DNA of 59,540 nt, counting the filler, from Sphacelaria rigidula (lineage: Eukaryota), in the NCBI GenBank assembly GCA_964200075.2. It is 10 parts of 10 records of this genome, joined end to end, with 100 filler letters (N's around TTAATTAATTAA, not from the genome) between each part and the next. Parts side by side here need not be neighbours in the genome. Positions count along the whole stretch, not along the records: positions 11,931 to 17,794 come from CAXNAA020023880.1; 9 more parts are not named here. The stretch is one strand, 5' to 3'. Made by a program: the position numbers and the translations under genes. Numbering within the stretch: position 1 is the first letter of the stretch; every line of letters begins with the position of its first letter. The notes under the pieces were generated by a model. It saw only the letters and a program-made list of their open reading frames with translations, had not been told where the DNA came from and did not search any database. Below are positions 1 through 53,088 of the stretch, piece after piece.

Positions 1-363
1 TGAAATAAAGCCTAGGGATTGATTCGTCACAAGTCGACTCATCATACTAACATCAAGTGATTTCCAGAAGAATCATTACATGTCCGATCCTTGGATGCTT
101 GGAGATAACCGGCGTCACATCGAATCTGAGTTACTTGGAATCAGGGGGGCGAACAAAAAAGTAGCGAACGACGTTCATTTTTTATTCTCCCATACGAACA
201 TTTGCGCATAGGTGTAAGCCAAACTTTGAACGTTAACCCGGGCGGAAATTATGTTAGAGGGTGCTCGTATATCTCGGAATTGGCTTGTACAATCGAAGTC
301 AAGACACGGAAAAACACAAGTACAAATACTGCGAACCGGTCAAGCTTGCACAGGCGTACACAC

Positions 364-641
364 CTTCGCTCGCTGGAAGAAGACATGGGGGGGGTCGTAT
401 TCCACCGTTTGGCCTTTCGCCTTCCCCTTCCGCCCCTCAGACGGTCTCTTCTCTATGTTAGCTTCCATTTCGTCTCCCCATCCTACAACCGCCCCCGCCT
501 CTCGCGTTCGAATGCCGCTAGTATCCACAATGCCCTCCACGATAGCTAGATAAGCCTTTTTAGCTCTGCGTTCCCGGAAGGCATGGCAGGCGCGCGCTGC
601 GGCGTCGCGGTGAAGTGCCACGCAAAGAACACCGGACGTGG
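364..641 (-). CDS. RPUSD1: RPUSD1-like pseudouridine synthase, exon 3 (gene continues beyond the contig)
   Basis: Splicing completes HQLDF-A-TSGVLCVALHRDAAARACHAFRERRAKKAYLAIVEG (RluA motifs II and IIa). HQLD rather than HRLD is typical of RPUSD1. Phases are consistent and a GTGTGT donor follows. Confidence 0.85.
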
Positions 642-829
642 CTGAGAGGGTATACGGCGCGGCGGAGAGTGGGTGGGGAGTACACCGTTACTTGGGCACA
701 GCGGCGTGGCCTCGAACTACTGGAGTACGTCGTGTAGTCCTTTGATCTGCGAGATACACTACTGTACAAAATACTCGTGTCTTGTTGCTTGTCGATCATT
801 TCATGGCACGTGCGATTCGTTGCGATACA

Positions 830-1176
830 CCCGGCAGAGTCTTCAGGATGTTCCCACCACTTGAGCCAAAATAGTGTGAACCTGGATTTTTTACTTCAAG
901 CTTCAGAGTTGTGACGTCAAATCTTCGAGGGCAGGTGCGAATTTCCCCCCTTTTCCTACAGAGAGGAGGAAGCCTCACCCAACACTTACCCCTCAAGCGG
1001 GCTCGTGATCCATTTACCCGAAGGCTCGGCTAGGTCACCTCGCTGCAGTCATGTGGGGTAGGCGCTTCGAGCGTTCGGAAACTTTGCTCAAGGCAAGTGT
1101 GGGAGTCGAACCCACTAAAACGCCCTGTCAAGTTGACGAAATGCACGCGCCGCCCTGCTCTCATGAGCTTCGGCTC
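830..1176 (-). mobile_element. Degenerate tRNA-derived SINE-like repeat (boundaries approximate)
   Basis: Pol III B-box GGTTCGACTCCC on the minus strand at 1101-1112 with a weak A-box upstream; no intact cloverleaf. Confidence 0.35.
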
Positions 1177-2179
1177 TAGCAGTGGTTATTAATGATAGGA
1201 GCAGTTTTCCTCATTGAGGGGTTCAGGTTTTGGTCTACCTTGTCAACGTGTTTTGAGCGCGTGAGTTTTAACCTACCCGTTGTCGCCAAATATGATGGCC
1301 GTTTCACGAGAATGGTTGTCTCTTAAATCCGCAGCGAGCTGACGAACGGTCAGGTTCCTTTGTGAGAGACAAGACATCGAGCTTGACCTTGTGTTCATGT
1401 GGGCAGCGGACATGAGTGACAGACGTGGGCCGGGTAATCCGACCCCAACCCACAGGATATTCAGACTGGATCTGCATCAGCTGGTATCAAACCAAGCATT
1501 TCGGGCCACTTCTTATGTTACCATGGCACATATTATGCGGGGCGAATAGGTATTGGAACCATGGAACACAGTGATACCTGGTATCAACATTAGATCTCAA
1601 TGAATTTCCAGAAAAAGACATGTCTTCACTCTCGGACTGAAAAAACAGAAGAACTCTACCCTTTTGCTGGCCTTCGAGTTGTTGATTTGCAACCATCTTT
1701 AATTTTTCCAGGTCCTCACAATCCAATCCAGACCGAAAAATCCCCACAATATGCAGATCCCCAGGGGCGTGGAAATTGTAATCGATGCATTATAGTGCAT
1801 ATCTACTTCATCATTTGTTGTAGACGTGACTTTCAAGCGGCGGTGGGTACGGCCACCAGGCCGTATTCGGTGTATTGGGATAACGTGAAACGACATTAGT
1901 CCATGGACAACCGATGAGAAAGCGCGGCGCACTCCAGGTGGGCTACAGGGTTGCACGGAACCTACTCGTTTCTCTTTTTGCTATCGCTCCTGCCACCTAC
2001 ACCGGGCACGTTTTTCGGTCAAGTAGTAGGGCCAGCCTGCTGTGTGCACCGCTAGCTGCAAAGAGAGCACTCCAGAGCGACAACATGGGTCAGCGTGAGA
2101 TTCTTGTGTGTAAGAACTAGCTCGACGTCTTGATGACACGATACCATGTGTAAGAATACGGTTCAATCATGTGACCCAC

Positions 2180-2294
2180 CAAAATCCAACTGGTGCACCC
2201 ACTTGAGGTCCTTGTCGACTAAGGTAGGACACCAATGCCTTATAAGCTTCTGGACGGTCACGTCGAAGTCTCCGTCCATGCGAACATCTATCGG
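2180..2294 (-). CDS. RPUSD1: RPUSD1-like pseudouridine synthase, exon 2
   Basis: CAG acceptor, PIDVRMDGDFDVTVQKLIRHWCPTLVDKDLKWVHQLDF, GTGGGT donor in phase 1; carries the catalytic Asp of HQLD. Confidence 0.85.
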
Positions 2295-2472
2295 CTGAGG
2301 GTCAAGGCCGAAGTTAGGGAAGCAGCGGGCAGTCGATGGGGCGATGGTTTTGATGCTGTGACTCCGGAACATTTGCGCGTTGTCGCAGGTAACTGCTGGC
2401 TTTCAACTTGGAGCGTTTGCATTGTTGACTCTCTTGCCACAAATAAACGCTCCCAACCAGATGGCAGGATAA

Positions 2473-2838
2473 GGCCGTTTCTTCCGGTTCGTATTTTGTT
2501 TGGCTCGTCTTTTCCACTTTTAGGACGTTTGACAAGGTTTTCGACCCCCAAACAGGGAAAATCGCCACCACACGTCTTGGACACTTTGTATCACCCCACC
2601 TTGAAATACCTAGAGACTGTGCAATATATGTTTTCCTCGTATTTTTGTACAAAGGCCGCTCTCGAAATCTCTGACCCAAGCGAATCGGAAAAGGGGGCTA
2701 GGCTCCTCTCGGTGGGGTGATACAAAGTGTCCAAGACGTGTGCTGGCGATTTTCCCTGTTTGGGGGTCGAAAACCTTGTCAAACGTCCTTCAAGTGGAAA
2801 ATACGAGCCAAACAAAATACGAACCGGAAGAAACGGCC
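2473..2838. mobile_element. PIF/Harbinger (Tourist-like) MITE in an RPUSD1 intron
   Basis: About 128-bp TIRs (2473-2600 and 2711-2838) starting GGCCGTTTCTTCCGGTT; flanks TAA and TGA fit a TNA 3-bp target. Confidence 0.8.
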
Positions 2839-3019
2839 TGAGGGATGGTACAGTAGTCAGTCAGCTTCAGAAGTATGCAGAATTATTAATTTCTTAGTTT
2901 CTCGAAGATTTTCCAAATTTGTTTCGCTTGCCACCGCTCATCACAGTGACTGTTGGATTCCAAAAAATAGGTATCTGTAGACATTTTCATCCTTTCGGCA
3001 AGTATTGGAAAAAAATATA

Positions 3020-3700
3020 TCGGCGATTTTCGGGGGTCCCGCGAAAGTGCAACCCCAGATTCTAGCATTTCGGTATTATTTTCGGTGAACCGACTCGATC
3101 TCGATCATATAAGTGAGGACTCAATATATATATATATATATATTTTTTTTCCAATTTCATCCATTCAATGCGCTAAAACCGGAAACCATGTTTCTTGGAC
3201 CATTCACGGTCAATAACACCGTCCTGATAAACGGGGTCTTTACTCCGTGTCACCCCCACAGCACCAACTTGGGCATTGTGATTTGAGCACGGTCTGTTTA
3301 TTTTGCCGATACTACCGGCACTAGCACTTTCGAGTGCTCATGGAAAATGTTATGCAAAAAAAACCCCGAAAGGAGGCCACCCGCAGAAAATGCTTGACTG
3401 AGGTCTGCGCAGTATAGGAGGAAAACACGATCTCGATCGTTTTTGTGAAGAACCGTATGCGTATTAATTTATCTCAATATCTACCGTTTCGTTGCGGAAG
3501 AGCCGGGAAACTGTTTTTATTTGACCAACAATGATCACTGACACCCTCCTGATAAACGGGGTATATAGTCCGTATCACCCCCAAACAACAACTTGGGCAC
3601 TGCAATATGAGCGCGGCCTACCATTTCCCCTAAATCTACCGGTGCTAGCATTTTCAAGTAGTAATGAAGAATAGTACTCGACAAAAACTCAAGGACTACA
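3020..3700 (+). repeat. Dispersed repeat with an internal ~325-bp tandem duplication; related copy at about 48200-48540
   Basis: CCTGATAAACGGG...ACTTGGGCA...CTACCG..GCTAGCA block at about 3222, 3548 and 48383. Confidence 0.7.
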
Positions 3701-4188
3701 ACAACTACGAATTCCGAAGACTTCTGATGCTGACTACTTTTGGCACGAGAGTGGTCAAATGAACCAGGCTTTGAATTACAGTGTTTCGCACACGACCAAA
3801 ACCATTTTCTAGCGGTGTTGACTAGCGACTCGATGAAATGCGTACTTCAGGGTATGGACATACGGAGGTCAAAGTTTGCAGGCCAGTTCAACATTTGTTC
3901 CTCCTGGCCACTTGATTTCGGGTACACCTGCTGCCCAGTCACGTAATTCACGGGCAAAAATGCGCAACAAATATGGTGGATAGCACCCCGGGTGGTATCT
4001 GCTTCGTTCGATGTAGTACGGCACCCTCAAACTCAAAACTTCGGCTGATCATGCCTTCAAGAGGTGATCTATGTATGATACACGTAAATGCATGCCAGCT
4101 TCTCGTAGCCACATCTACAATATCCGATATGCTGAACTCAACCTCCACAGATGGCTCATGCTGACTGAGCAAGAGAACAAGGTCCTAC

Positions 4189-4239
4189 CTTGTTTATGAC
4201 GACGAAATCGTCGTCAAGCGTCAGGAGTTCCAGGGGCAT
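4189..4239 (-). CDS. RPUSD1: RluA-family RNA pseudouridine synthase (RPUSD1-like), exon 1; start may lie further upstream (in-frame ATG at 4362)
   Basis: MPLELLTLDDDFVVINK followed by a GTAGGA donor, phase 0; matches the RluA motif I pattern (D-D-x-h-V-V-N-K-P) once joined to the next exon. Confidence 0.75.
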
Positions 4240-5825
4240 ATCAGCGCATCCTATAGCCCCGCGTAAGTCCCGAGATGTTGCTGCATCTCCAAGGGAGGCG
4301 AGAAAAGTATCTGATGCGCCCTGCGACCGCAAGGGTGCTCTCCGCATAATGCTTTTGATCATGTGCCACTTGGACTAGCCGTGGGATGTCTCCACGTGCC
4401 GGCTTCGCCCGTCTGTACATCCGAGTCATGTTCTATGTTGACGACGAGGGGATGGTTATTTTCCGCTACCCATGCGCTTGAGAACACATCACTTATGCAC
4501 TTATTGGTAGTTTGAAATTACCTTTCAAGAGATGAAGAGTAAAGAGACGATCATTTTTGACCGAAAATCTTAAAAGAGAATCTCACACGGGGCTGTGCTG
4601 TATGAGGGTTTCATCCGGGGAACGAGGGAAGACAACGGGTCTGAAAGTGAATTGAATAAACCAAGTGAGGCAAAAAACGCCTATCAGATTAGTCGAGTCA
4701 GGCACAAGCCGCATCGGGTCTGACCAGACAAGATGCGTGCTCCTTGCTGACGGCGAATAAAAGTAGTAAGAAGGAGGAGGGTTCAACGAAAGCATCCGAA
4801 CCTGATTCTCTCCTGTTACTATTCTCAAGGTTGAGCCAACGCTGCAAGGCTACGAGCATCATCGCAGGGGGGATACACCTGGCAATCTAATACGGGCAAA
4901 CTGTACAGAGGTGGGTTGCGCAAATGTCCCCATAGGCCTGTGCCGGATTTGTTGAAGTGAACAGTACCCCAACAAGCAGTCGTAAGAGGGAGCAGATGCC
5001 CGTCGTCGCCGCCAAGCTGCAATTTAGGCCTGGGTCCGAGACGTATGTATCTTTGAGGAGATGATGCGATTCTGATGTGTTGCTTGTAAAGATGTTCCCG
5101 TCACTCTGATCAGTACGAGGCGAGAGGGGGGTCGGAAGGAATTAACATGTTTGCATCTGTGCTCCGTTGAACTGTCGTTGTACTGTTGTACTCCAAAATC
5201 TCTGCAGCTGTAATGGACGTATATGTGTACGGTCGGTACCGTGTAGCCTCTACCGCACGGTGTGCCTGGCTCGTGAATGGCGTGGCCATCTACAGTATTA
5301 TTCGCATTGCTGGAATCACGGAAGAATGTAACTGCTGATGAGTATTTCACCCCCCCCCCCCCCGCATGCACTAAACGTATTTTCCATATCACCACTGGCC
5401 CATCAGCTAGCTCTCTTAGGCTGACCTCCGCCAAGATACGCTCAATTTTTCGAAATTCCAGCATGCGGTCAGATGAGGGGGGTGATGGCGCAGATGGCGC
5501 AGATGGTCATTTTACCCTCACAGTCAGTAGGCAGGGACAGCACCGCAAAGTACAGGTGAATCATCGTGTTGAGACTATCGACTGCAATGCCGGCCCTCTG
5601 TTACGTTATCTCCATCAAATATGAAGCCAAGCAAAAGAGAAGTAGTCCGCGGCAGCAAGAGAGGAGCAATTGACACGGAAGGCTGGACGGAGAAGCGTAC
5701 AAAAGCTGCTGAGCAAACACACGGAGCAGTAAGCGGCCCAAGCCTACTCCACAGGCCTGCTCCGACCCGCGAGACCTGTGCCCACATCTTCCGTGAAGGA
5801 ACAATCCAGCGCTCGAGTCGACCTT

Positions 5826-5865
<40 letters not shown>

Positions 5866-5965
5866 NNNNNNNNNNNNNNNNNNNNNNNNNNNNNNNNNNN
5901 NNNNNNNNNTTAATTAATTAANNNNNNNNNNNNNNNNNNNNNNNNNNNNNNNNNNNNNNNNNNNN
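5866..5965. other. Artificial contig spacer (also at 11831, 17795, 23759, 29723, 35687, 41651, 47615 and 53578)
   Basis: 100-nt N-TTAATTAATTAA-N linker with stops in all six frames, recurring every ~5964 nt. Confidence 0.99.
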
Positions 5966-8699
5966 GCGTGTGGCGTCGGGCGGGGTGCGGGGTGGGGTGG
6001 GGGGGGGGGGGGATACATAATGTCTCGGAGTTTTTTTTTTGGGGGGGGCACTCTCGGTGAGGTTGGTTTTATTTTTATTTTTCACTGATTGACGGCGTTT
6101 TAGTATGGTAACGACCATTTTTTCACGAGAACGCTCAAACTTTTCACAAATAAATAAAAAATGACGGCTCATTTTTTTTTACTCAGCATACCTCTGTCGT
6201 TCTCCATGCCAAGTTTCGAATCACAATTCTAAAAATTGAGATAAGGCTCAAGAGCAATTTTGATTTCTCCTCAAAACTCCCCGAAAAACACGAAAAACAC
6301 GAAAAAAACGAACAGAAGTACGACAGAGCTGTGTTTTTTATTTCATTATGCACTAGCGGTTCTTCATACCAAATTTCATAGCACAACTCTCAACAGCTGA
6401 GACGCGATATCCAGATTCAGGTCATCTACTGCCTCTGCTCGTAATATACTGAGTTTAGTATGGAAATTCATGTGCGCCATATCTCTAAAAGACTACGAAT
6501 TACGTTAAGTTGAGGGTATCTACCGTTTCCCCGTGCTCCAGGGAAGGTCTACAACCAAAATCGTCACCATCCGCTGAATCGATCGTTCGGCGTTTCATAT
6601 AAAGTTTAGTGTGGACGCTATCTCCGCTAGGTAAAAGAATTACCAGACATGGGGTTTAATCAACGAGAAAACATTGGCCAAGATTTTTGAGCAGATGGGC
6701 ACCTTCCCCTTGATGAGACGACTAATACGATATGCGGATCACGACCCAACTCGTCTGTGTCGTTGATGTATCGCTTCGAGAGCTTAAATCCGTTTTTAGG
6801 CTGGCCGAGCTCGTAAACCTGGTGATGTTTTGGCCTAGAAAGGGGAAGCGGTTTCTGGAGGCAAGACAGCCGTTGTCGCGTGGCAATACGTCGCGAGTAA
6901 CATGCTTGTTTTTCCGGGGATTTTTCGAGGCCCGGGTGCCAATACCCCCGAATGATGTGCGTGAAGAATCCGGAGTGAAAACGGGCTAGGTGGCGTTTCT
7001 TTGCCGTTTTCGCGTTTCTGGCCTTTTTTCGTACCTTTCTTGGGCAAAAAACGAGAAGGTACATTTTTCTAGGCCACAGGCGTTTTTTTAGTACAAATGC
7101 AGGTCAGGAACTGACTTCAAATTTCAAACAAAAGCGCCTCTTTAAACGTGCTGCTCAGTTTTGACCCGACACAAATGTAACATCGTTTTTTTACAGCCGA
7201 TGTCAATACGAAGTAACAAAAGCAGTTGTGATCAGCGGTGAGTAGGATTCTAAAAAATTGGTCAAGAAGGGTCACCCCGGCGTTTTAGTTGCGGGCGATC
7301 CGTCGGATCAAAATAAACACGAAGTATACTTATTGAGAAGGCTTCAGGACACCTTTGCGTTTTCCTGTGGCCGCAGTTTGTTTTTGGCGGAACTTGCATT
7401 TTTATCCAAGAACGATCAAGCCCAGAATGAACTGCCAGTTTTTCTAGACTCGACCGTTCTTGATCGTTCTTGGACAACAAGCAAGTTCAGCCAATAAATG
7501 TATGGGCACTTTCCGCGCGCCGTTACGGGGCTTCCTCGTCCTCAATGAAAAGCCCCATCCTCACTCTTGATGATGGGCTGTTCTTCGCATGTCAGCTACC
7601 ATGACGGCCTGAGAATGACAGGGGAGGTTGCTGGAGTACTCTTCTGTCATAATTAGCCGCATATTCTCCGGTGACATGGCCCCACTCCAAGCTATTTTGT
7701 TTTTTCTGGCGGACGCATGATCAGCCTTTTGCGGAGTTTTCACTTGATTACAGAACAGGACAGAGTGTGAGTTAAAACTCGATTTTTTTCACCCATGGAT
7801 CGCGGGCGTTTAAGCCCTACCATGGTGTGGTCTGCATTGTAAGGCTAGTACTACAGTGCTCGTTGTACTGCCGCCAGGAACAGTGTCAATTTTGTTGGGT
7901 ATTGCCGTGGCGGGATATATATCGTGCAAAAAACGCTCCTCCCTTCTGCAGTGATACGCATCCTTCCTCACCCGGCTGCAAAATATGCGGTGACCGGTCT
8001 GTAGCGCCAGGTATCCGTGCAGATGTGGCAACCTCTCTTCCGAGGGCATCTGCTCCCCCTCTAATCTCAGTGTTTTCGAGGCATTAGGGCATCACAGTCT
8101 CCAACTGACGCCGCGGATGATGAGTTATAATCGCCGTAGAATACCCCTATTGCACTGAAAAGGAGCAGCACTGTTGTTGTCGCATTTTCCCATAACGCAT
8201 TCATCACGCAGTGTGTGAACTCGTGTACGACATATATCGGTGAAGTATCCTGTACTGAATTGTCTCTTTTCTGGAAGGTGCATCCCAGCGATGCGAAGAA
8301 AATCGTACAGCCGAATGTATTTAGAGCATTGGCTAGACATCCCTGGACTTCACGTACATAACTGACGATACGGTATCATACCGTATGCGGTACGGTCGAA
8401 TCAGTCAATACAGCACAGTTTCACGTGTGAGCTGGTGCTTTATTACCGCCAGGAAAAAACATCTAGACAATCTCGCTCTAAGCACCGCCGCCAGGCCGCA
8501 TCGGATACCATGCACGGCAAGCTGCGCAATGATCAAAGTGCCCAAGTGATCGACCACACCGCGCGGCACACTCCGGGGTGGTCGCGGCGCACGACAGCGG
8601 GGAACCTAATTTTTAGTGTTGCTTCGAGCCGTTCCGGTGCTATTATTCTTCAAGAGTATGAAGGCGGTTTACGGAATTTGGTACAATAGCATGCCCGTT

Positions 8700-9004
8700 G
8701 CCCCGGTGGCTCAGTTGGTAACCTCGAAACTTTCTGCCAGTGGGGTCGTGGGTTCGAATCTCGGTGCAGTCACACGATCTGGGATTTTTTCTCACACCAT
8801 GCCCAACAGTGGACAGCGACCATGTCGTGGGTACACAAAAATTGACTTCACGGTCGACGAGGGAAGGGTATACCGCTGAACCCCTCTCGCGATAAAAAAA
8901 TAGGCAAACACCGCAGAAAGAAGATGGAGTACTAAAACAAAAGAAGAAAAAGCTCCTGTGTTGGCATTCCTCCTGTGTGACCCCGGCCGATGCGCCCACA
9001 TATA
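8700..9004 (+). mobile_element. tRNA-derived SINE
   Basis: tRNA-like head with A-box TGGCTCAGTTGG (8707) and B-box GGTTCGAATC (8751); the body recurs reverse-complemented at 41103-41345. Confidence 0.8.
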
Positions 9005-9028
9005 CCGACAGGTGTAGACTCCAAAAAA

Positions 9029-9287
9029 AGAGCGGTGCTACGGTAGGGGTGCACTTGTTGCGCGAACCCTCGGCTTGTTCAGGGGCTGTTAACGGTTCTA
9101 GATGCACAAGAATATAGGTCAGGACATCCCCGTTTGCAAATTCAGTCGGGATATCCCCAGCAAAATGAAGTAGTAATCCTGGGGTACTCTCATATATTTT
9201 CAGAAGTCGTGTTTTGGATGAGATCAAGGGCTTCTAACAATTATAACCTCAGAAACTATTTTTGCACCCCTACCGTAGCATCACTCT
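9029..9287. mobile_element. MITE with 25-bp TIRs
   Basis: AGAGCGGTGCTACGGTAGGGGTGCA versus TGCACCCCTACCGTAGCATCACTCT (2 mismatches); AAA on both flanks. Confidence 0.7.
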
Positions 9288-11215
9288 AAATGGGATGACA
9301 GCACACACACCCGCCGCAGGAGACCTAGTTTAGGCGCTGCTCCGAGCTGATGCAGTGTTAGTCCTCGTCCATAATATAGAGGCAGTTAACAGATTTTGGA
9401 ATTTCTTACACGGCAGTTACGTTTGTATCATGCTTCACGGCGTGAAATGTGCGGAGCTTAGACGGACACGCGTCCGTGGGAGAAGCGTGCTCACACCGAC
9501 AACCTCACAGGTGGAGGCGCCCGGATGGGAAAGGATGCATGCCAGTGCGAAGGGAGGAGACGCTTGTTACAAGAAACATAGCGCGGCGCGGGAATGTACG
9601 ACAGAGTTGGCACTGTGTGCTTCGAGCCGGCAGAACAACGAGAAATGCACTGACTGTACGACTTGAACTATGCCTCGGCAAGGCTCAAACTCCCGTGATC
9701 CATGCGTAAACGTTTGCAAATTGCTCTCTGTCCTTCTCTGAAAACGATTTACGAATAGGTACAAGCTGGTTCACGGTGATCACCCAAAATTGTGTCATCA
9801 GCAACTGCCTATTGCGATACGCACCCAATAGTCACATATATGGTATCATACTGACCGCAATGATAAAACGAAGAGGGTGACATGGCCGGACTTTTGTTCA
9901 AGGCCATAGCGGGGGCGCTATGGACGGAAATATGTCTCAACCAATCAGCGCCCTTGAAACAGTTCCGAGATCGAAATTACAAATCCCAAGCCCAATTTTC
10001 ACCCAATCTCCACATGTTTCGAATCGTAGTAACCGTCATCGGCATGGGAATCTAACGAGAAAAACATATTTTTCAAACGGTCAACACCGGGGTCGAATTA
10101 TACCCAAAACCGTGATGTTTCGGTGATGTCGGGTGTTGGCGTCGTCTATTTTCGAGTGATACGCACGAAATACCCAGGGCGCCTCGTGACGGTGTCCCCT
10201 ATATCTGTCGTAGAAAAGCTCAGATCGTCCTTGAACTTGGCGGTTTTGTAGGCATTGGTGCTCCAAATGGAAAAATTGTATTATTGACAATAGTTCAGGG
10301 TTCATCCGTTCTCTACCGGCTTCCGGGGGTCCTGGTATGAAGACCTCCGGAAGGGGCTACAGAATGCCCTAAAAGGAAAAAAAAGTGATGCGTCCCGGGA
10401 TAGTGCAAGGAACACATGTACAAAGTTCGATGGAGGAAATCGAAAGTCTCAAACAATTTTTCTTGCCTTGACGTAAAATTCACTCCAAAAGACGTTTCTG
10501 TACCAAAACCAAGTAGTTAGGGGTTACACGTTTCAAGCCCACGTCCTCCACAAACGCTCAAACCTTCACGCGGTTATCAGGAGTTAGATCCTGAAACTTT
10601 GCAAAAATATACCTTGTATCATTACGCAACTTCCTGTGGACGAGTTTTTTTTCTACTTCTTGAGTTTTTCACCGTTTTTCGGGGGTCCGACGGGACCCAA
10701 GTCGTTTCACGACGTAGTCTCGATTCTGGAACCCCGGAAAACCGACTCTACGGCTTTTTTTGTTCTTCACTTTTCGCGCACGATTTGTCGCCGCATAATC
10801 CAAGGAAGGGCCCCACAAAATTTCGTCGCAGAACTCGATCAACTGATGCTTGAATTCTCATGTTCACGTCGAAGAAGGCCCAAGAACGCCGTTTTGGTAC
10901 AAAAATCGAATAATTTGCGGTTGGACCGCGGTACGCCAAGGTTTATCGCACAAAAGCGAAAAATGTCACGCCGTTTTGAGGAGTTAGACCCCGAAATTTC
11001 GCACAGCTGTTCTGTAGGTCATTACGCAACTTTGGAACAACAACATTTTTAGATATATTATTCACCGTTCTAGGGCGGTTGATTAGATCGATGTTTTCCC
11101 GACAAAATAGGGACTCCCGAGAAACGGTGAAAAGAGTAAAGAGTGATCAAAGACCACGTTCTTTGGAAGTTGGGTAATGACCCATAGAATATCTGTGCAA
11201 AATTTCAGGGTCTTA

Positions 11216-11830
11216 GGCCGTTTCTTCCGGTTGGCTATTTCACGATATTCTCGGGGAAAAAATACGAGACCGGGGACATTTTACGAGATGGGCGCTCCTG
11301 GCTTGTTTTATTTTTGAAAAAATACGAGACGAGATTGACTTGTATTTTCCTCTCGTTTTTTCATTTGCGGCGCGGCGATATTAGCAACGCCCGCCAGCCC
11401 TGAATATGTTTGTGCCCTTGGACATCCGCGGGGCTCTTCTGATAGCAATGTCGAAAACCTCCAACGCCGTTTACACCCCAGACCAAATTCTACTTCGCCA
11501 TCCCGGCGCACGCGAGATGTCGTAAGGGGCTGATGATCTATTGGCATCGATCGTTCTCTCGAAAACGTGCAGCAAAGACAGTACCCGGCAAAGAGACTAC
11601 AGGATGCTGTTGTCTGTGCTGTCTCATGCTGTGAGTTAGTTGTAGGTGTCAGCTGGCACACAACAGTAGTACGCACGGCTGTAGTGAAAATGATGCGTAC
11701 GGCGTGAGATATGTGGACAACGTGCAATACAGACAATAGCAGGTAGTACTGTACTGTCTGTACTGCCGATTGAACAGTAGGATCCACATGCCATGTTGCA
11801 CCCGACAGTTGCCGAAAATCATTTGGGCTA
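11216..11830 (+). mobile_element. Left end of a second PIF/Harbinger-like element (right end not seen)
   Basis: TTA followed by GGCCGTTTCTTCCGGTT, identical to the terminal 17 bp of the MITE at 2473; the interior differs. Confidence 0.5.
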
Positions 11831-12137
11831 NNNNNNNNNNNNNNNNNNNNNNNNNNNNNNNNNNNNNNNNNNNNTTAATTAATTAANNNNNNNNNNNNNN
11901 NNNNNNNNNNNNNNNNNNNNNNNNNNNNNNAGGGGTGGGTGTGCCTGATGAGCACCGTGCTGACCCAACTCTACCACCACACCACAGCCTGGGCCAAGGG
12001 TAGTAGTGAGAAGGAATCACTCCTTGAAGGTGATTTCGGCCCTACACCCGCCGAAAATACCCTCCCCACGCCGTACCGACAAGACCGGTCATGACCTTCG
12101 TTGGAGGACGGGGAACGGGGGCATTTAGTGTATTTGA

Positions 12138-12528
12138 TAGAGCTTGGAAATGGTTCGTCTGACCATTAACCAGTTGAATGGTTACGTGTAGCGCAATCAT
12201 TAACCAGTAAAATGGTTCATACTGGTTTGGTCATCGAGCGGCGCAGCCGCTAGCCAAAAAGCCTCCCTCGGCAGAGGGGGCCCCGCTGAAGGCGCCACGC
12301 TGGAGGCACGTTTTTACGCGATTTGGCTTCGCTATGACTAAAAAATACGTGAGATTTGGACCATTTTTCAAGCGCTGTATGTAGCATACGTAATCGGTAA
12401 CGGGATACAAAGCCGGTGATGGTAAATAATGGTTTGAAACCATTATCCCAGATTTTCATATAACCATTACCATTATTACCATTATGATAATAATGGCCAG
12501 TTATAACTGGTACCATTTTCGAGCTCGA
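12138..12528. mobile_element. Degenerate hAT-like MITE
   Basis: Imperfect 17-bp TIR (TAGAGCTTGGAAATGGT / ACCATTTTCGAGCTCGA) with many internal AACCA/TGGTT subterminal motifs; TSD not clear. Confidence 0.5.
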
Positions 12529-13125
12529 ATTACTGATGAACACCTTACCAGTCAGTCCTTGGCCCTTGTTTTCAGCTTTGCACCCCAGGTACGCGCACCC
12601 CAGGCGCGTGGAATGGCGCCAAATTTGGCGTCGAAACTTTTTTCACCCACGGTAGCTTCCTTTCACAACTTCCCTTTACCCTTTTAAGCAGTCAGGCCTC
12701 AGAAATCGTAGATTTGGTGGTTCAAACCAGTCGTATGACGCGACACACTGTTGTCTTGTGTGTCTGTTGCATATCTGCACCCCTCCAGCTGGTACTAGAG
12801 CGCACATCGGGCATGCTTTACGGTCGCGCCGACAAGATGAGGAAACTATGTGCAGGTCGCCCTGGAAACATAATTGTTCCCCGACATGTCACTTGCCCCA
12901 GTTTCATGCGGTACGTTCCTCACGATCACGGGACTGACCCAAAGCTGCAGTCATACGGGAAGGAAAAAAAACCCTCGATGAAGACGATAACCCAGATTAC
13001 AACGTCTACACGCCGTTCTGCAACAACAGTGCACACCGCTTTTTTTCAAGCGCGCCCAGCCCACGTTTTCACGACAATATTTCTGCCCTCCTGACCCGCC
13101 CGTGTGTGTGACTTGTTTGCGGTAG

Positions 13126-14025
13126 GGTCGACGCAGCAAGCCAACTTCGTCTGGCACGACGCAGTAGAAAAGGGCCCCTACCATCGCCTTACGGCACATG
13201 TTACCGCCTGCTGCATGTCCGGTTATTAGCTCCCGCTACCGGTGCAACGGCTGCACCAGCCGCACACGGGTCTGAAAGCGGGCCGTCCCCGGATCAACGG
13301 CATAAAAGAATCCGCGGTAGTACTGCGACGAGGGCCCGCACGTTGGTTTGTGATCAGTGCGGAAGCGTTGAAATCGCGGGTGCTCGCCAAAGCGACAGCA
13401 TCGATGGTGAAAGCGGGGTGGCGGGTCTTCTAGCTGTCTGCAAGGGTCCCGGGTGCGGGGTGGCATTTGCGCAATGCCAACGGTGTAATACAGACTACGA
13501 CGGGTGCTGCAGCGCTGCTTGTCAAGCGCTAGCGCTAGCCGCCAGAGATACAACAAATCTGCGCACTGTTCATGGCGAGATCGCCCAACCACCAGGTGCG
13601 GAGCATACCAGTGTGGGAGCGTTTCCCGGGGGTGATCGACGGCGACGCCAACCAGTGCCGGGCTCGCCGTCAGGGCGATCTAGATCAGCGGGCTCCTCTG
13701 TAGACGAAGTACAGATATCGAAGCTTGAACCGCCGAGTTTTTTTAAACATGGGAATGTTCCTCCTTCGTGTGAAGGGTGGGTTGAGGGGATTGACCGCGG
13801 TATTCCATCGCAGGCCGACAAGGGGTCGGAAGCATCTGTAACTGCTGCCCGGGGTGGTGGTGAAGACGGTCGAGGGGTTTCCGCTGCGGCGCGGCGTTTT
13901 TCCACAGGGTTTGGACGAGATGGGTGCAATGGGGACCTTCCGGTCGTAGATTCGGAGGACTACGCGTCGCGGCACTCGATCCCGGAATCGAAGAGCTTGG
14001 CGAAAGTGCGTGAGGCGACCAGCAG
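13126..14025 (+). CDS. Exon encoding a TrhO/YceA-type Cys-rich C-terminal domain, a linker and the N-terminus of a class I O-methyltransferase
   Basis: One open frame from a TAG acceptor (13125; alternative 13229) to a GTGTGG donor. Contains CDQCG...CKGPGCGVAFAQCQRCNTDYDGCCSAAC and ends EDYASRHSIPESKSLAKVREATSR. Confidence 0.75.
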
Positions 14026-14393
14026 GTGTGGTGTCCGGAGGTGACAGTGTTGTCGAGAGGTAACGTTAGTGGGAACAAAACCAATCACTATCAATGATGA
14101 AGTAGATTATTCAAGGGGAGAATATGAGAACTTGCGGGATGCGGGCGTTTCGATTGGTCAAAGCGGGATACCAAAATATTGCATCTTCTGTTTGTCTAGA
14201 TATTTTTTGTCGGTAGTGCTTCCAAGGTGTTGTATGCGTTGTTGGTGTTTTTGGTTACTCGCTGAGATTGGCGAGTCGATGAATTTCACCCGCATTGACT
14301 ATGGCGCAATCCCCCCAACATCCATTTTGTCTCACCTTTGGATAATTTCCCTTTCTTCTGGTACATGCGAAAAACTACACAGCCAACGAGACC

Positions 14394-14757
14394 CAGTCTG
14401 ATTCGTGTGGCTTGGACTTGTCAACGTCACGAGTAGCCACGTTTTCCAATGACTCGCAGGACTCGAGGCAGACTCGTCCTAATATCTCCCGAATGATTCG
14501 TAAGGCTCGAGGTAGACTCGTCCCCGTTCGTTTGGGAGAATTCGTAGGACTCGAGCCCTCTTACTCGTAGCCCTCACTTTTTCGAATGGTTCGCAGTACT
14601 CAAATCCTACCTTTCCGTCCTCATTTTTGTCGAATGATTCGCTGTCCTCGAGTCCTTCCTTCCCGCCCTTATTTTTTGCCGAATGCTTCTGTGCCCTCGA
14701 GTCCTACCTATCGGTCCTCGTATTTTTCGGATAGTTCGCTGAACTCGAGTCAGACTC
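14394..14757. mobile_element. Degenerate MITE with dense GACTCG/CTCGAG subterminal repeats (intronic)
   Basis: Imperfect TIR CAGTCTGATTCGTGT / ACTCGAGTCAGACTC; repeated GAATGATTCG...CTCGAG units inside. Confidence 0.5.
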
Positions 14758-14987
14758 TTCATTTTATTTTCCAAACCTCGACGGACGGGAGGCATGGCGT
14801 CTGACAACTGACCCTTTGGATGTCGCAACAACGGCATGTGGCTTCCACCGCTTTCCTTCAAAAGCCAAACAAGAGAGACGGAGCATAATGCGCCCGCGAT
14901 ATTTATTTTATAGAACTGACGGGTTCAACCCTGTGCTGACAGCGGGGTATGTGCCGCTGCCTGTATTCCTCCGGTGTTTTTGGTCAG

Positions 14988-15056
14988 GGGACAACCGAGG
15001 GCCGCGCACATGGTGTCAGGGCACCTCCAAGGAGAAGTGCTCAAACTTTTAACGAG
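14988..15056 (+). CDS. O-methyltransferase (caffeoyl-CoA OMT/TrmR-like, Methyltransf_3) exon
   Basis: CAG acceptor and GTATGT donor, phase matches the upstream exon; GQPRAAHMVSGHLQGEVLKLLT fits the M-x-S-G-x-x-Q-G-x-x-L motif of this family. Confidence 0.85.
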
Positions 15057-16648
15057 GTATGTATGGCGACGTACATGGGGTATTGGATTTGGCGGGAGGC
15101 AATGACAAGTCGCTTTTTCAGGCACAGTCGTTTTCCTTATTTTTCGCCACACTTTCAAGTCTTCCCCCTTCCTAGCGACAGAGGTGGTTTTGTCCCAGTT
15201 CGGCTACATTCTTACCCATGGTTGACACATTTTATGGATGAGACTACAGTAACTCTAACCCATAACCGGAGGCAAACCTAGAACCCTCAGGCCAGCAGGG
15301 TTCGAAGAGTTCCCTAGGCAAAGTGTGCGGTGGCAGACCTCACACCGTTGCCTGCGGCATCGATTAGGACAAAACTACGTTTCGCCCACGCTGGGAACAC
15401 TGAGGGCTGTCTGCCCCACTAAAGATCCGAATATCGGTGTTCGCACTCAAATCAAATTGAATCATATCAACCATGGGTAAACTGTAGCCGAACAGTTCCG
15501 CTACTGTCGGGACTAGCCCGTGATGTGTGAAGGGATCATCAATCTTTCTCTCCCCCGGCACACGTCTATCATTTTGGTATCATGCATTGATTGGATCATG
15601 ACCATCGGCACTCCCGCACCGCGTCGATTCTCCGGGAATAAACTTCTTCTGCTACCCACGTACTCCCGCTTTGAACACCGGAAATTATATATGCACTTTC
15701 CACAAAAAAATACCTATTGCACATACTTCTTACCGGGATCTATCATCCTAGCTGGTCGCTAGCTATGCCGCTTAGGCCACCAGGGCGCGGCGGCAAACTG
15801 TCACTTGACCAGGTTCTGTGTGTCTTGACATTTGGTTGCAATTCAGTTGGTGACCACCCCCCGCCACCCCCTAAACAAGGTCGCCGAGGGGACTCAACCG
15901 ACACCGTAGCATCGTTCATAACGATGGCGTCACGTTGAGTTTGCCCACCGCTGAGAACATTTTCTTTTGCCTTTGTTTTTACTCAGTCCAGTGGTAGATT
16001 GTCGTGTATGTTCCACACCAAGTCGGCGGGGTCGTGGCTGTTCCCCCAGGACTCACGCCTCTCTTCCCTGTCCGATTATTCTTGGCAGTGAGTATGTCCT
16101 CACAGTTGCTTTCGAGCGCTTTTTACAGGCTGTTGAAAAGGGGCCGAGCACTTGATCGATTTTTTTTCAGGGAAGCCAGGAAAAAAGTCCACAAGTATGC
16201 GTTCGGCTTTGCCTACGCTGTACCTGGATGAAAACCCTCGCTTGTTTGGGTTGCTCTGGAACAACGCAGACAAGGCCCAGGTGTCTTTACTCCCTGGATG
16301 ACAACTAGTCTACACTGCGAGGTAGTGGGAATTTGCAGTACATGCATTAAATTTTCACCCTCTCCCGCCCCCCCCCTCATTTACTTGACCACATAGGTAC
16401 AGCTGTCTGGGTAGTTTCAGCGTGTTTGGCCCTCAGAACCCTAAACCTTTTTCACGAACATTACCCCCTTGCACGTCAGACCTCACTTCAGAACAACATC
16501 TTCGGCTGACCTTCAACGCCAAAAGCCTCGACGCTATCGCAGAGTGGCTCTTCCCTGTTTGCCAGAATGGTCCCCGATGTCGACACATCGTGTCATGGCC
16601 GTGGTTTCCAACCCATGAGTCAGTCACATATATATATACATATATATG

Positions 16649-17190
16649 CAAGGTTGTGTTCTGTAGGGTATGGTTTTCTGTATACCCGGGTATTTTGCCG
16701 GGTATTCACCGTACCTGACAGTTCCGTGACTTCTGTAAGACCTTCACACCGGTACTCGACAGTTCTATAATCTCTGTAAGAGTTTCATACCCTTACCCGA
16801 TAGTTCTGTAATCTATGCAAGAATCCCGTATCGTTACCGGGGGGAGCAGGTGCGCTCTTGATAAGATACCTGATTGCGGGTACGGTTTTCTGTGCAAGCT
16901 CCATACCCTACCCAGCAGTTTCTGTGAGTTTCTGTAAGTCTCCCATACCCTTACCCGACAGTTCAGTGAGTTCTGTACACAATGTTGACCTGTACCCGGA
17001 GCGCGGGTATGCTCTTGAAAAGTACCCGATTGCCGGTACCGATTTCTGTAAGTCTCCCATACCATACCCGACAATTTCTGTAATTTCTGTAAGACTTGAA
17101 CCCAGTACCGGTACCCGACAGTTCTGTGAGCTTTGTAAGCCTCCCATACCTCTACCCGGGGTTAGTGTATTCCGTTATAGATATACCCGA
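16649..17190 (+). repeat. Internally repetitive non-autonomous element (TACCCG/TTCTGT units)
   Basis: Many near-tandem CATACCCTTACCCGACAGTTCTGTGAGTTTCTGTAAG units; starts CAAGG like the hAT MITE at 52734. Confidence 0.65.
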
Positions 17191-19161
17191 TTGCAGGTGT
17201 GAGCACAAGTATATACCTTGAGGAGGCACGGATGCAGGTTCGATCCAAACACATTCTCATGACCTGACGTGTACCTTTCATCGATCAACCCACCCAACTT
17301 CTTCATTCAAAACTGCACACCAACAATAGTTCAATGTTGAACAGTTGTTGAGTTTGGGATCTGACGGGAAAGAAGGTACCGCTGAGTGGAAACACGAAAC
17401 ATGAGCAACCCTGTAGACCGTCAGGATGAATCACCCCTAGACTCGAGTGGACCCCCGATGGGGTTGGCGTCGGTTGGCGATGACGCTGTAAAGCACGCCA
17501 CTCACTGCGTAAGTTAGGCAACCCGGTTACCGGGGTTTTTTTTCGAGCGCTTGCGTTTTTTTTCCCAGTAACCATGATGGTAGTCGAGCTAAATCATGTT
17601 GTGCGGCGTGGGAAAACCTCAACTCCACATATTGGGGATGATCGTACCACGTAGTGGGTCTATGGTGAGACACCCAGGAGGCAGTGTATAAGCCGTGGCT
17701 GTCTCTGGAAGTGGCGATACCACAAAATAAAGCAACTCATTGTAAGCTGTCATCCAAATGCAAGATAATCAGTAGGCTTCGGGCCGAACAATCTNNNNNN
17801 NNNNNNNNNNNNNNNNNNNNNNNNNNNNNNNNNNNNNNTTAATTAATTAANNNNNNNNNNNNNNNNNNNNNNNNNNNNNNNNNNNNNNNNNNNNTTATTT
17901 CTAGTTGAAAAAACGCCAACTAATGCAACCAAATAATCGAAAATCAAATAGGACATCGTTAAGGGCTCGTACAAACAAAACGATACAGACTTATGGGACA
18001 GAGGAAGTATGCACATACGCGTCAATTTCCTTAGTTCTCGTGCTTGGCAACAAAATATTTAATTATAATTCATCGAGTGAAGACGAAGGAACGCACGATC
18101 AACGCGCATACAAAGCATCAAACACACACACGTGAGTGCCGCAACATATATCTGAATGAATATACACAGAGGAAGCACAAAACGCATAAACGGGCATGCA
18201 GAGAACACGCCCAGATATACACACTGTCGGGTTCTCGTCTTTCCCTATGCTCGAGACGTGACAGGAAGTATCAACCCTGCTCCCATGAAGAGCGGTTAGA
18301 TTAACACTATGGTTGAAGCGATTCCAACATGGCAAGCATGAAGTCATGACATTGGTTGCTCCATCTGCAACCACAAAAACGAAACCCTACGGGTTTTTCT
18401 GCATAGAGTTAAGAAAGCTATCGCACGTGTAAGGAACGTGAGCAAAGAATAGACCCGCCCAGCGTCGACAGGTTGCTGAAGAGATAACCCAACTTTGATT
18501 TGATTATAGCACATTCACTGATCCATTCCCGAAGGATCCACGCGTGGTCATTCTCCACAAGGTAGACATACCCTAGGTACACTGAAGGAAAACGCCCGCT
18601 GAAGAAGGAGGAAAGTACAGACGAAAACATATTTATGTGACAAACGGAGAAAACTGAAAAACAAACAAAAACGTTCGTGGAAACAGATTGCGGCTCAGGT
18701 ATTTCGGACTAGGACCACTTGGGCATGAGCTTTCACTCATGAGCCCTACGGAAGCAAAGCATCAATCTGCTAATGCATGACACGGAGATGGAAGAACCAG
18801 TGGAAGGGAGGGAGAGATGGAGAGAGAAGATGAGAGAACAGGGTAGGAGGGAATTACGGAAGCGATAAAGCTCAAGCAGAGAAAAGCATGTACGGTGGCA
18901 CAAGCAGGAAGACCACAAGGCCGCGAGCCAAGGGAAAGCCAGCAACCGATGAGAGAAGACAGGGGTAGACCAGCGTCCGTATTTCAACCCACTTAACCCG
19001 GCTTCCCCCAGTCATATCTTGTCGCGTGAGAGCGGGCAACTCTCTCAATCATTTCCATCCTGAATTCCTCGCGAGCAGTTGCTGTTGTTGTGTCGGCGGT
19101 GGCGGGTCTCTAACTGGCGACTCTAGACGCAGCAGCCTTTCCTTTGTGGCAAAGGTCTGAC

Positions 19162-26188: not shown

Positions 26189-27654
26189 CAGCGCCAACTC
26201 ATCTGTTCCGTCTCGTTTTGCTTACTCCCACCCCCACCNNNNNNNNNNTGGGGGAAAAGAAAGGGGGAGGGGTGTGTGGTGGGGGGGGAATTTTCGCGGG
26301 GCAGCAAGAAAACAATTCGGGGGCAACCCCCCCCCCCCCCCCCCCCCCGGTCCGCATCCCTGGGAGTGCAACTAGTTATGAAACGGTTCCCGTGTTCCGG
26401 GTATCACCGATCACCAGGCAGGTATCTTGTACGAATCATGAGGGTATCACAGGTTGTTATCAGAGTTTTGGGTATACCTGATTCGGAATACTCAGGTTTG
26501 TCTGAAGAGGCGATGTACTGACAAAACGGAGTGTACAAATCACCTATGTAAATCCTAGTACAAGCAACCTGGGTCGTACAGATCACCATCCAGCAGACTT
26601 GTACCAATCACAAGAGTCATCCAGATCGTTCATCAAGCGATGTGTACAGAGCAACCGGGGTTTTCAGGTCACTAGCCAAGAAATGTATGCTGGTCAAATG
26701 GGCCATACAGAGAATCGATTCACTCGGAGATCGCAAAGGTCTAAGATTGTGCTCTGTAGGGTATACCTGGAGGTGGGGGATTTTTGGTTGGCATACCAAG
26801 TCGTACAGGATGCGTGTCCCGAATATTACGGTATGGTTCGGCAGGGTATCGCGCTCTGTTCCGAACGATCCGTTATGGTCTGGAAGGATATTTATCGATG
26901 AAGAAAACTTTGTGATGAGTCCCCGATTTTTAGCCGGTATGCCCTACAGAACATCACCTTGCAAATGTTATATGGCTGATCGTCGAGCGCGCTTGCGGGC
27001 GCCACCCTTGCTTCATTAAGGCCGGCAGTGTTAACGTCGGTGACTTTCGCCCGGAACGTTTTAACAGACATGTGTCAATTGAGCATAGAGCCATAGCAGC
27101 TGTTGGTTCCTCCTTCATATAGTCACTGGGGCATCAACTTAATGTCACATGTGCCCGGGTTGTTGCAGTCAACCCACGGTATTGTGAGTATCCACCATGT
27201 ACCACGGTCATACAGGTCAGCAGGTGAGGAATACTCGAATACTATTTCTTCTGTAATGGGTCCGGATCATACGGGTGTGGGAAACTGTTTATTGTATACT
27301 CGATTCAGAGTCCGCAGAAAAGAGGCGGCTTTTGGTAAACATTGAATTCAAATCACACGGGTCGACGAGAAGCTGCTGCGTTTGAATGAACCAATGTATT
27401 CAGATGACAATTATGTGATATAGACATGACGCGGTTCTGCAGATCAGTTCTACATTAAAGTGTTTGAAGCGGGTCACACAGCTCGACGCTCGGCAAATAT
27501 CTGTAGGTCAAACAGGTCGTTTACATCTCCATCGGACAAACGTGCACGGGTGACAGCACACCTCGGACCGGTTATCATGCATGCCCCAAATCAGCCGACC
27601 CGAATCTTTCATAATCTGATCCGTCCGACGTGTGAATATATTATCCCGCGGTAG

Positions 27655-50225: not shown

Positions 50226-50954
50226 CTGTTAGTTGGGGGCACCGTGAGCCCGGAGAGCAGAGCAGAGCCGAGGAGCAACATGGCGCGGTAGTAGAATGGG
50301 ATATTAAAGCAGAAGGAAACGCGAACATATGGTACGGATACAAGAGCGGCACCGTCGCTTCCCGGTGGTCTGCCTATGTGACACACCAAAAGCCGAGTAT
50401 CAGGGTATGAGGGGAGGGATGTGGGTTCAAATGGCGATAGATGGAACGCACTTTTCAGCAGAATCTATCTGCTTTCCGCCTTTGAAAGCGGGGGGACGTG
50501 AGTAGCAAAGAAGGGTCGACGAGAATGGATGGGGTGCAGCAGTGCTGGTAGTGGTTATCCAATCCTTGCCAACAGAATACCAAGCGGGTACCGGGGAATA
50601 GCGAGAGAGATCGATGGATCCCCTGAAACTACGAACGCGTCCCGAGGAAAGGGAGGTACTCAGAGTATGACGGAAAAGAACACACACACACACTGACACA
50701 CCCAACACACAAAGAATCAGCCACGGGAGCAGAGGAACCACGAAATCATCACACAACCTTGCACAATAGAGTCCCGGGCCGCGCCACTGCACCCAATCCA
50801 TTGACCGGCCAACCCGAAGAAAAGCCGAGCGAAGCTAAACCCAAGCCCCTCACTTCATGCCCCGTCTCGAAAGGAATGCGTGGTCAATGTTCGAGCGACT
50901 AAGGCAAAAAAACGATAAGTACCCCACCCCCCACTTAATTCAACGCGATGGTAC

Positions 50955-52944: not shown

Positions 52945-53088
52945 AAAAAGGCAAACGAGTCCCCCTCTCGTCCAGCCTGCTGAAGATAACAAAAACGAAT
53001 GCCCCAGCAACTCGGCGTCAACCCACACGTGCTCATGCAGTCGCACAAGATCCAACGACAAATGTGGATGAAAACGCATAACGCGTAC

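Follow-up and report, generated by a model that had tools for sequence, protein, structure and literature searches.

A gene of the brown alga Sphacelaria rigidula was investigated in a window of 59.5 kb, the whole stretch of DNA analysed here, which is made of 10 parts of 10 records joined with 100 filler letters between them. The locus lies in the part at positions 11931–17794, from CAXNAA020023880.1. Wobble modifications of the 5-oxyuridine (xo5U) type are treated as bacterial. We lean towards reading this gene as a truncated descendant of the stramenopile TrhO-TrmR fusion whose product, probably plastid-targeted, would methylate 5-hydroxyuridine (ho5U) to 5-methoxyuridine (mo5U) at tRNA position 34. 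To judge from the sequence, its architecture and ancestry are firm; the chances of the tRNA function, taken against each rival in turn, appear somewhat better than even.

Under this reading, a nuclear brown-alga gene with its 5′ part in the window would derive from a stramenopile TrhO-TrmR (yceA-trmR) fusion. Its product would run from a presequence through the nine-cysteine module that ends the Rhodanese_C region of TrhO and a disordered linker to a class I, cation- and S-adenosylmethionine (SAM)-dependent O-methyltransferase (OMT). The hydroxylase catalytic domains (UPF0176_N and the rhodanese with its CxGGxR loop) would have been lost. The enzyme would act in the plastid after import, using SAM and a divalent cation to turn ho5U34 into mo5U34, the reaction of Bacillus TrmR. 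The Cys module that was kept may act as a metal-bound docking unit for the tRNA or for a separate hydroxylase, and hydroxylation itself would be supplied by another gene. The parts of the gene identified in the window are as follows.

12735..12910, plus strand: candidate first coding exon, with an ATG at 12735, a hydrophobic N-terminus MTRHTVVLCVCCISAPLQLVL, a GT donor at 12911 and a phase (2) that fits the exon A acceptor
13126..14025, plus strand: exon A, within the open reading frame (ORF) 13112–14044; a 1887-nt contig lies on 13126–14022 with no other letters in runs X1–X3
13340..13543, plus strand: TrhO-type Cys-rich module, identified by hhalign to bacterial TrhO, nine invariant Cys and an AlphaFold2 model
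13544..13954, plus strand: low-complexity linker, hypervariable among homologs, with no conserved columns in family alignment A1
14026..14987, plus strand: intron of 962 nt, GT..AG, its joint seen in X1–X3 and absent from X5
14988..15056, plus strand: exon B, (R)GQPRAAHMVSGHLQGEVLKLLT, the second piece of the Methyltransf_3 N-terminal region, with a GTATGT donor at 15057

The plus-strand ORF 13112–14044 spans 310 codons from stop to stop and includes CDQCG...CKGPGCGVAFAQCQRCNTDYDGCCSAAC, a long low-complexity stretch and EDYASRHSIPESKSLAKVREATS; the ORF 14920–15105, on the same strand, includes AHMVSGHLQGEVLKLLT. All three peptides quoted in the initial annotation were thus recovered. Exon A encodes, in order, 74 basic low-complexity residues, the nine-Cys module, the variable linker and the first OMT helix (EDYASRHSIPESKSLAKVREATS), and is bounded by an acceptor AG at 13124–13125 and the donor GT at 14026. 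As read from the sequence, the AG that ends exon A and the G that starts exon B form an Arg codon, and the reading frame is kept across the splice. Since its ORF lacks an in-frame ATG, exon A must be preceded by one or more further coding exons.

Sequencing runs were used to examine this structure. Runs X1–X4 were guessed to be RNA (one study, share 0.13–0.17) and four were DNA-like, none being on record as RNA; X1, X2, X3 and X5 were placed on 11931–17794. In all three RNA-like runs placed there, the 1887-nt contig matches 13126–14022 and 14985–15057 letter for letter. The 962 nt skipped at its joint have GT..AG ends once the cut is shifted by 3 (donor 14026, acceptor AG 14986–14987). The DNA-like run X5 showed no joint; a single contig, 12694–15340, runs colinear through the intron. 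The exon boundaries and in-phase splice of the initial annotation proved exact, exon B ending at 15056 directly before GTATGT. The 1887-nt contig also extends 29 nt 5′ of 13126 and 888 nt 3′ of exon B, and neither extension was placed within 11931–17794. The contigs of X1–X3, all from one study, establish the existence of the spliced form but bear on neither expression level nor transcript ends, and stretches of X1–X3 without contig cover (12911–13106, the intron, 15067–15262 and others) carry no interpretation.

Homologs follow the same junction. A phmmer search of 1.84 billion representative proteins gave 24 matches at E ≤ 0.001, and at least 10 homolog predictions stop at, or leave the frame after, the same ...REATxR position. 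P0025, from a second species (460 aa, on a 2022-nt contig), reads over this junction with the Cys module and a complete OMT in one frame; it crosses the position where genomic forms stop or go out of frame, which marks it as a spliced product. In tblastn, exon B was 72–79% identical to P0007, P0021 and P0028 and 71% identical to the fusions P0031 and P0034. In homologs, the sequence matching the end of exon A and exon B aligns to Methyltransf_3 from position 3 onward. Translation of the Cys cluster together with a TrmR-family methyltransferase, as first proposed for this locus, is borne out by both the spliced contig in X1–X3 and the Methyltransf_3 domain of the homologs.

The Cys-rich module carries the pattern C-DQ-C-G ... 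C-x4-C-G-x3-F-x-Q-C-x2-C-x3-Y-x-G-C-C-S-x2-C and is presumably metal-binding. Pfam Rhodanese_C was below threshold on the window ORF (E 0.0024, 18.6 bits vs. a cut-off of 26.9, profile positions 37–66); 19 of the 24 homologs matched it at E ≤ 0.01, and two reached the cut-off. Of the two domains named for this locus in the initial annotation, Methyltransf_3 was found in homologs that continue past exon B, and Rhodanese_C was sub-threshold on the window ORF itself. Using hhalign, a 15-sequence module profile matched 10 bacterial TrhO sequences (98.4%, E 5.5e-15, 47 columns, 47% identity), and the match falls on the last ~47 positions of the Rhodanese_C region. Only the Cys-rich half of Rhodanese_C (PF12368, about profile positions 20–66) is retained. 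The bacterial sequences came from a pattern scan of prokaryotic genomes with the 15-sequence module alignment, which confirmed 111 of 148 candidate stretches, with 80 loci kept. Ten translated loci read as textbook TrhO (MYCTGGIRCEKA..., FVFDxRxGE..., CHQCG...GCHLLFIQC..C...Y.GCCS.ACQ), and the three of these that were scanned all contained UPF0176_N, Rhodanese and Rhodanese_C well above threshold.

Nine Cys were invariant in all 28 aligned sequences (15 of the brown-alga type, 3 eukaryotic fusions and 10 bacterial TrhO); the opening motif is CDQCG in the eukaryotic fusions and brown algae, and CHQCG in bacteria. Together with the hhalign match, this bears out the earlier proposal that the Cys spacing is that of the C-terminal domain of YceA/TrhO, and homology of the two modules can, by sequence comparison, be taken as established. 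In family alignment A1, invariant columns gather in the Cys module and the OMT start, with none in the linker. Invariant Cys beside a hypervariable linker argue that selection acts on the module.

The AlphaFold2 model of the window module was of moderate confidence (mean predicted local distance difference test score 76.3, predicted template modelling score 0.55). Foldseek returned no match to it at E ≤ 0.001, its top row being 9j5o_A at E 3.0. With VIA-align, residues 244–292 of 9j5o_A, the C-terminal part of Bacillus subtilis TrhO in complex with tRNA-Ala, gave Z 4.1 and a root-mean-square deviation of 2.5 Å over 49 residues, and this was the only one of the five Foldseek rows with Z ≥ 2. 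A PDB sequence-profile search with the module gave a zinc finger as best match, at E 0.055, and a homolog search with the Cys region of P0025 alone returned 1 protein, from 1 candidate. A literature search on the function or metal of the module found no paper. Among solved TrhO proteins (YceA/YbfQ; PDB 9j5o with tRNA-Ala, and 4f67), 4f67 has no such module and that of B. subtilis TrhO is poorer in Cys. The nine-Cys C-terminal module is what TrhO and the alga gene have in common. Unlike TrhO, the alga gene has neither UPF0176_N nor the rhodanese active-site loop, and no hydroxylase chemistry would be expected of it.

The hydroxylase half was searched for specifically. UPF0176_N (PF17773) and Rhodanese (PF00581) had no Pfam match in any of the 24 homologs and no tblastn match in the window; with five complete TrhO-OMT fusions as queries against both window strands, matches were limited to the Cys module and the OMT start. 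A CxGGxR scan of the window gave one chance-like site, at 19996 and out of context, and a six-frame motif scan (LEIG, DADK, DN, CxGGxR) gave nothing usable. The caution in the initial annotation, that the rhodanese catalytic domain and the SAM motif were not found on this contig, holds for the whole window. The 74 basic residues ahead of the Cys module are unrelated to the FVFDxRxGE segment that precedes it in TrhO.

The initial annotation had seen here a bifunctional single chain, TrhO hydroxylase and methylase together, which would place the rhodanese exons upstream and out of sight. Complete fusions do exist in relatives, exon A has no start codon of its own and so needs at least one exon upstream, and the transcript contig reaches no further than 29 nt 5′ of exon A. 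Even so, we regard this arrangement as very improbable. The two catalytic halves were not found in one polypeptide among the 24 homologs or in the window, where neither strand matched UPF0176_N or rhodanese and no CxGGxR motif had a plausible context. In brown-alga homolog models, the Cys module or linker instead comes straight after a signal-peptide-like N-terminus, the residues before the module are not of the TrhO type, and a pseudouridine-synthase gene on the other strand occupies about 340–4374. A full-length product without a rhodanese domain, the outcome that had been named as decisive against the single chain, is what the brown-alga homologs show. The brown-alga gene accordingly appears, by its sequence, not to be a single-chain hydroxylase/methylase; for S. 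rigidula itself, this covers the window and the transcript contig, which reaches just 29 nt upstream of exon A.

The ancestry of the truncated form was examined through the OMT. A search with P0025 gave 426 proteins at E ≤ 1e-5 among 8000 candidates scored, of which 120 were listed; the search covered proteins of 253–805 aa. Among these matches listed, the next best after the brown algae were complete proteins with UPF0176_N, Rhodanese, in part Rhodanese_C, and Methyltransf_3.

P0031: 785 aa, 219 bits, UPF0176_N + Rhodanese + Rhodanese_C + Methyltransf_3
P0032: 733 aa, complete fusion
P0034: 755 aa, complete fusion
P0041: 718 aa, 15 cluster members, complete fusion, with two members named ‘UPF0176 protein’
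P0131: 777 aa, complete fusion
P0033: 440-aa fragment, Rhodanese_C + Methyltransf_3

The P0031 cluster includes an entry labelled Chattonella subsalsa, a raphidophyte. In BLASTP, P0031 was colinear with the Scytosiphon protein P0021 over the Cys module (48% over 29 residues) and the OMT (39% over 283, E 2e-59), and its first ~480 residues had no counterpart in P0021. A quick IQ-TREE phylogeny of 66 OMT domains, of which 7 came from brown algae, 6 from fusions and 53 from stand-alone proteins (every second of 106 rows), placed the brown-alga OMTs on one branch (Shimodaira–Hasegawa-like approximate likelihood ratio test, SH-aLRT, 99). A further branch (SH-aLRT 95) separated the 7 brown-alga, the 6 fusion and 2 ‘stand-alone’ rows from 51 stand-alone OMTs. 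The tree is unrooted, carries long-branch warnings (P0131, P0108) and leaves out OMTs below 253 aa, TrmR among them. We take it as firm, on these comparisons, that the brown-alga family is either a descendant or a sister of complete TrhO-OMT fusions.

Compared with the stramenopile yceA(trhO)-trmR fusions (P0031/P0145, with the Chattonella subsalsa entry, P0032 and P0131), the order of Cys module (CDQCG...GCCS..C), linker and OMT with AHMVSGHLQG / EIGTFTGYS is the same; the OMTs are 39–44% identical to those of brown algae and lie on the same side of the supported branch. Unlike the fusions, the gene in the window and its brown-alga homologs are without roughly 450 N-terminal residues (the first half of Rhodanese_C and, ahead of it, an extra N-domain, UPF0176_N and the rhodanese CTGGIRC); their low-complexity linker is much longer, and a 30–70-residue insert lies near the OMT C-terminus. 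All complete fusions share the extra conserved region before UPF0176_N, which Pfam does not name. In P0034 and P0041, UPF0176_N, Rhodanese and OMT are accompanied by a Rhodanese_C without its Cys-rich part (NYVFNDRMAE..., then a Cys-free linker). Among brown algae, the nine-Cys module is retained in Pylaiella, Scytosiphon and Nemacystus. Ectocarpus P0027, P0028, P0163, P0164 and P0166 and Cladosiphon okamuranus P0030 have a presequence, linker and OMT without it; either the module is dispensable there or the models are wrong, and lineage-specific loss, alternative splicing or a modelling error would account for its absence.

The methyltransferase itself is best seen in homologs. Among the 24, P0021 (660 aa, Scytosiphon promiscuus), P0007 (a partial 666-aa protein of Pylaiella littoralis) and P0024 (478 aa, Nemacystus decipiens) are the three that extend beyond exon B, all with Methyltransf_3 at E 1e-43 to 5e-46. 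Full-length brown-alga homologs retain LDIGTFTGYS, DADK and DNVLF when aligned to SynOMT (3cbg), the SAM motif and D...DN metal ligands being found in P0007, P0021, P0024 and P0025. For TrmR (YrrM, B. subtilis, PDB 5zw3), Asp133, Asp159 and Asn160 are given as Mg ligands in the structural report (PMC6158493). By motif position, DADK and DN would be the equivalents of these residues. TrmR belongs to the same Methyltransf_3 family, and the D...DN metal-ligand motif is kept in homologs of the alga gene; TrmR itself has no Cys module, presequence or linker. Against the OMT of P0021, solved structures scored as follows.

SynOMT 3cbg: 101.8 bits
Leptospira 2hnk: 98.9 bits
3tr6: 96.9 bits
Human COMTD1 2avd: 95.8 bits
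Plant caffeoyl-CoA O-methyltransferases (CCoAOMTs): 70–86 bits
6jcl: 57.5 bits
B. subtilis TrmR 5zw3: 55.0 bits

The OMT is thus not closest to the characterised TrmR among class I OMTs (55.0 vs. 101.8 bits for SynOMT). NCBIfam gave no TrmR-type match, merely weak generic methyltransferase matches far under their cut-offs, and ESM Atlas neighbours were generic Methyltransf_3 clusters, all at 0.89. The best solved sequence matches of the OMT domain (3cbg, 2hnk, 2avd and plant CCoAOMT) are stand-alone class I cation-dependent enzymes of about 220–250 aa, without a TrhO-derived module; those of their substrates that are known are small molecules. Relatives of the brown-alga OMT are fused to TrhO, and human COMTD1 ranks in the top four of its matches with a solved structure; we note this as a lead only. 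A TrhO homolog, TSTD2, is present in humans, and our literature search found no paper mentioning TSTD2 together with COMTD1.

These scores are the starting point for a rival in which the enzyme, after loss of the hydroxylase, was repurposed to methylate a catechol, a phenolic or another metabolite, the Cys module being a relic or serving some other interaction. The same direction is taken by the generic ESM Atlas neighbours (all <0.9), an Ectocarpus copy annotated caffeoyl-CoA O-methyltransferase, the Ectocarpus and Cladosiphon models without the module, and a hydroxylase partner yet to be shown. We nonetheless rate repurposing as rather unlikely. A supported branch leaves the brown-alga OMTs on one side with those physically fused to complete TrhO, the nine Cys are kept in 15 of 15 aligned brown-alga-type sequences while the linker drifts, and annotation names are labels only.

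The upstream end of the gene was approached from the window and from homologs. On the basis of its sequence, 12735..12910 is a candidate first coding exon. It was the sole plus-strand ATG frame in 4400–13125, just upstream of exon A, with a 10-aa hydropathy of at least 2.0 (2.94). It lies inside the single-copy DNA contig 12694–15340 of X5; it has no read support, and the 29 5′ nt of the transcript contig are unplaced. In NCBI brown-alga models, the protein opens with a hydrophobic stretch that resembles a signal peptide and leads into GSA|F or GSA|Y, as in Scytosiphon P0021 (...LLLTLALLPWQGSAYAL...) and Ectocarpus P0028, P0163 and P0166 (...LLLAEVAWQGSAFRPFGG...). We take this to be a putative ASAFAP-type heterokont plastid-import motif. 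The gene product is, as suggested by these N-termini, probably plastid-targeted. P0025 was considered as proof of a short N-terminus and rejected, as its first residue may be a relabelled alternative start and the genomic P0026 has V there.

Fusions of this kind had been described before. In Sakai et al. 2019 (PMC6599085), the yceA-trmR fusion in Phytophthora sojae, P. ramorum and Phaeodactylum tricornutum is a clue used to identify TrhO, with the OMT half of the stramenopile fusions treated as trmR, the rhodanese's CxGGxR active-site loop as a TrhO feature, and eukaryotic trhO homologs as a suggestion of xo5U-type modifications in eukaryotes. The Rosetta-stone argument had consequently already been published for stramenopiles. 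Of that argument as made for S. rigidula, the fusion logic stands, in that complete TrhO-OMT fusions exist and are the nearest relatives of the OMT; its novelty does not, and the hydroxylase half is lost here. According to a chloroplast review (PMC8877259), plastid tRNA-Pro, Ala and Val bear a U34 modification that is yet to be identified, and mo5U is listed among the modifications detected in Synechocystis RNA in a 2026 paper (PMC12860351). Neither reports of ho5U or mo5U from algal organelles nor experimental follow-up of the eukaryotic xo5U inference turned up in our literature search.

Several points weigh against a plastid tRNA methylase. The SAM-binding and catalytic exons of this gene lie outside the window, and its N-terminus is still a candidate. 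Activity, localisation and modified nucleoside are predictions from sequence. The brown-alga hydroxylase partner is still to be shown, stand-alone TrhO/TrhP not having been searched for; without ho5U the proposed substrate would not exist. xo5U derivatives are reported as not found in Chlamydomonas in the review (PMC8877259). In sequence, the OMT has closer matches among small-molecule or unassigned class I OMTs (3cbg, 101.8) than in TrmR (5zw3, 55.0), the enzyme with proven tRNA activity, and the stand-alone OMTs of the tree were all ≥253 aa, which leaves TrmR-sized enzymes unsampled. Models from Ectocarpus (5) and Cladosiphon are without the Cys module. The fusion lineages P0034 and P0041 keep hydroxylase and OMT without the Cys-rich part, so the module is not obligatory for the coupled pathway.

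With the TrhO-TrmR fusion already known, the general picture is unchanged; what is new here is the truncated variant without the hydroxylase half, which is of modest interest. It adds that the uncharacterised Cys-rich end of Rhodanese_C can persist on a methylase alone, apparently under selection. This suggests that the Cys-rich end is a separable unit that binds tRNA or a partner, rather than a portion of the active site for hydroxylation. A broader proposal is tentative and, in our estimate, may well be wrong: ochrophytes, brown algae included, would put mo5U on the wobble U of plastid tRNAs (the unidentified family-box U34 modification), and the nine-Cys end of TrhO would act, with its metal bound, as a portable module for tRNA docking or hand-off, which brown algae retained on the methylase once the hydroxylase had been separated or replaced. 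If true, the module would serve the pathway rather than hydroxylation chemistry as such. The brown-alga variant offers a compact construct for testing the role of the Cys module and a reason to look for ho5U and mo5U in ochrophyte plastid tRNA.

The remainder of the OMT was sought in the window. Further OMT exons past exon B were not found there by tblastn with 3, then 9, queries. A 248-position brown-alga OMT profile, run against 2999 six-frame fragments of the window (≥8 aa), recovered exon B only (E 9e-9, positions 2–25), the next at E >7. A search with the window ORF for longer proteins gave 0 of 8000 candidates scored and so did not yield the full-length protein of S. rigidula itself. What remains of the transcript contig, 888 nt, presumably encodes the rest of the OMT, plus the 3′ untranslated region (UTR). 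The missing 3′ exons are most simply explained by a very long intron or by faulty scaffolding rather than by the gene being dead.

The absence of these exons could also mean that the locus is a truncated gene fragment or an assembly artefact with 5′ exons only, which may not encode a working enzyme. Such an origin would fit the 10-N scaffold gaps at 26239 and 46632, the copia-type retroelement at about 30.1–32.4 kb, the unrelated minus-strand genes (PfkB and inositol-1-phosphate synthase) at 49.5–53.5 kb, and the high-copy repeats that flank the gene. It is improbable in view of the spliced 1887-nt contig, which has 0 differences over the exons and continues beyond exon B for 888 nt, which would roughly accommodate the remaining OMT and the 3′ UTR (compare P0025). 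Both exons have open frames and canonical splice sites; together with the spliced contig, these imply that an intact mRNA exists.

The gene is set amid high-copy repeats. Summed depth in X5 reached 2.7 million over 11931–12714 and 16635–17794, where repeat-type joints are numerous, vs. about 24 for the single-copy gene. In all three RNA-like runs, 374 nt are skipped from 12118 to 12493, 11 other letters standing in between. Runs of 10 N at 26239–26248 and 46632–46641 look like scaffold gaps and may explain the missing 3′ methyltransferase exons. Paired 44-N runs, about every 5964 bases from 5866 to 53677, look like imposed masks.

Other coding sequences were identified across the window. Exons of an RluA-type pseudouridine synthase lie at 340–687 and 4156–4374 on the minus strand; PseudoU_synth_2 matched the former (E 2.2e-7), and the latter, an ORF reading ...LELLTLDDDFVVINKVGP, had no Pfam match. 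A Ty1/copia-type retroelement occupies 30077–32413 on the plus strand, with rve (E 1.7e-6, below cut-off) and a retroviral SH3-like domain at 30077–31099 and RVT_2 (E 3.4e-42) at 31490–32413. An exon of myo-inositol-1-phosphate synthase was placed at 52927–53463 (minus strand; E 1.9e-5, just under cut-off), and one of a PfkB-family carbohydrate kinase at 49536–50228 (minus strand; E 8.6e-14).

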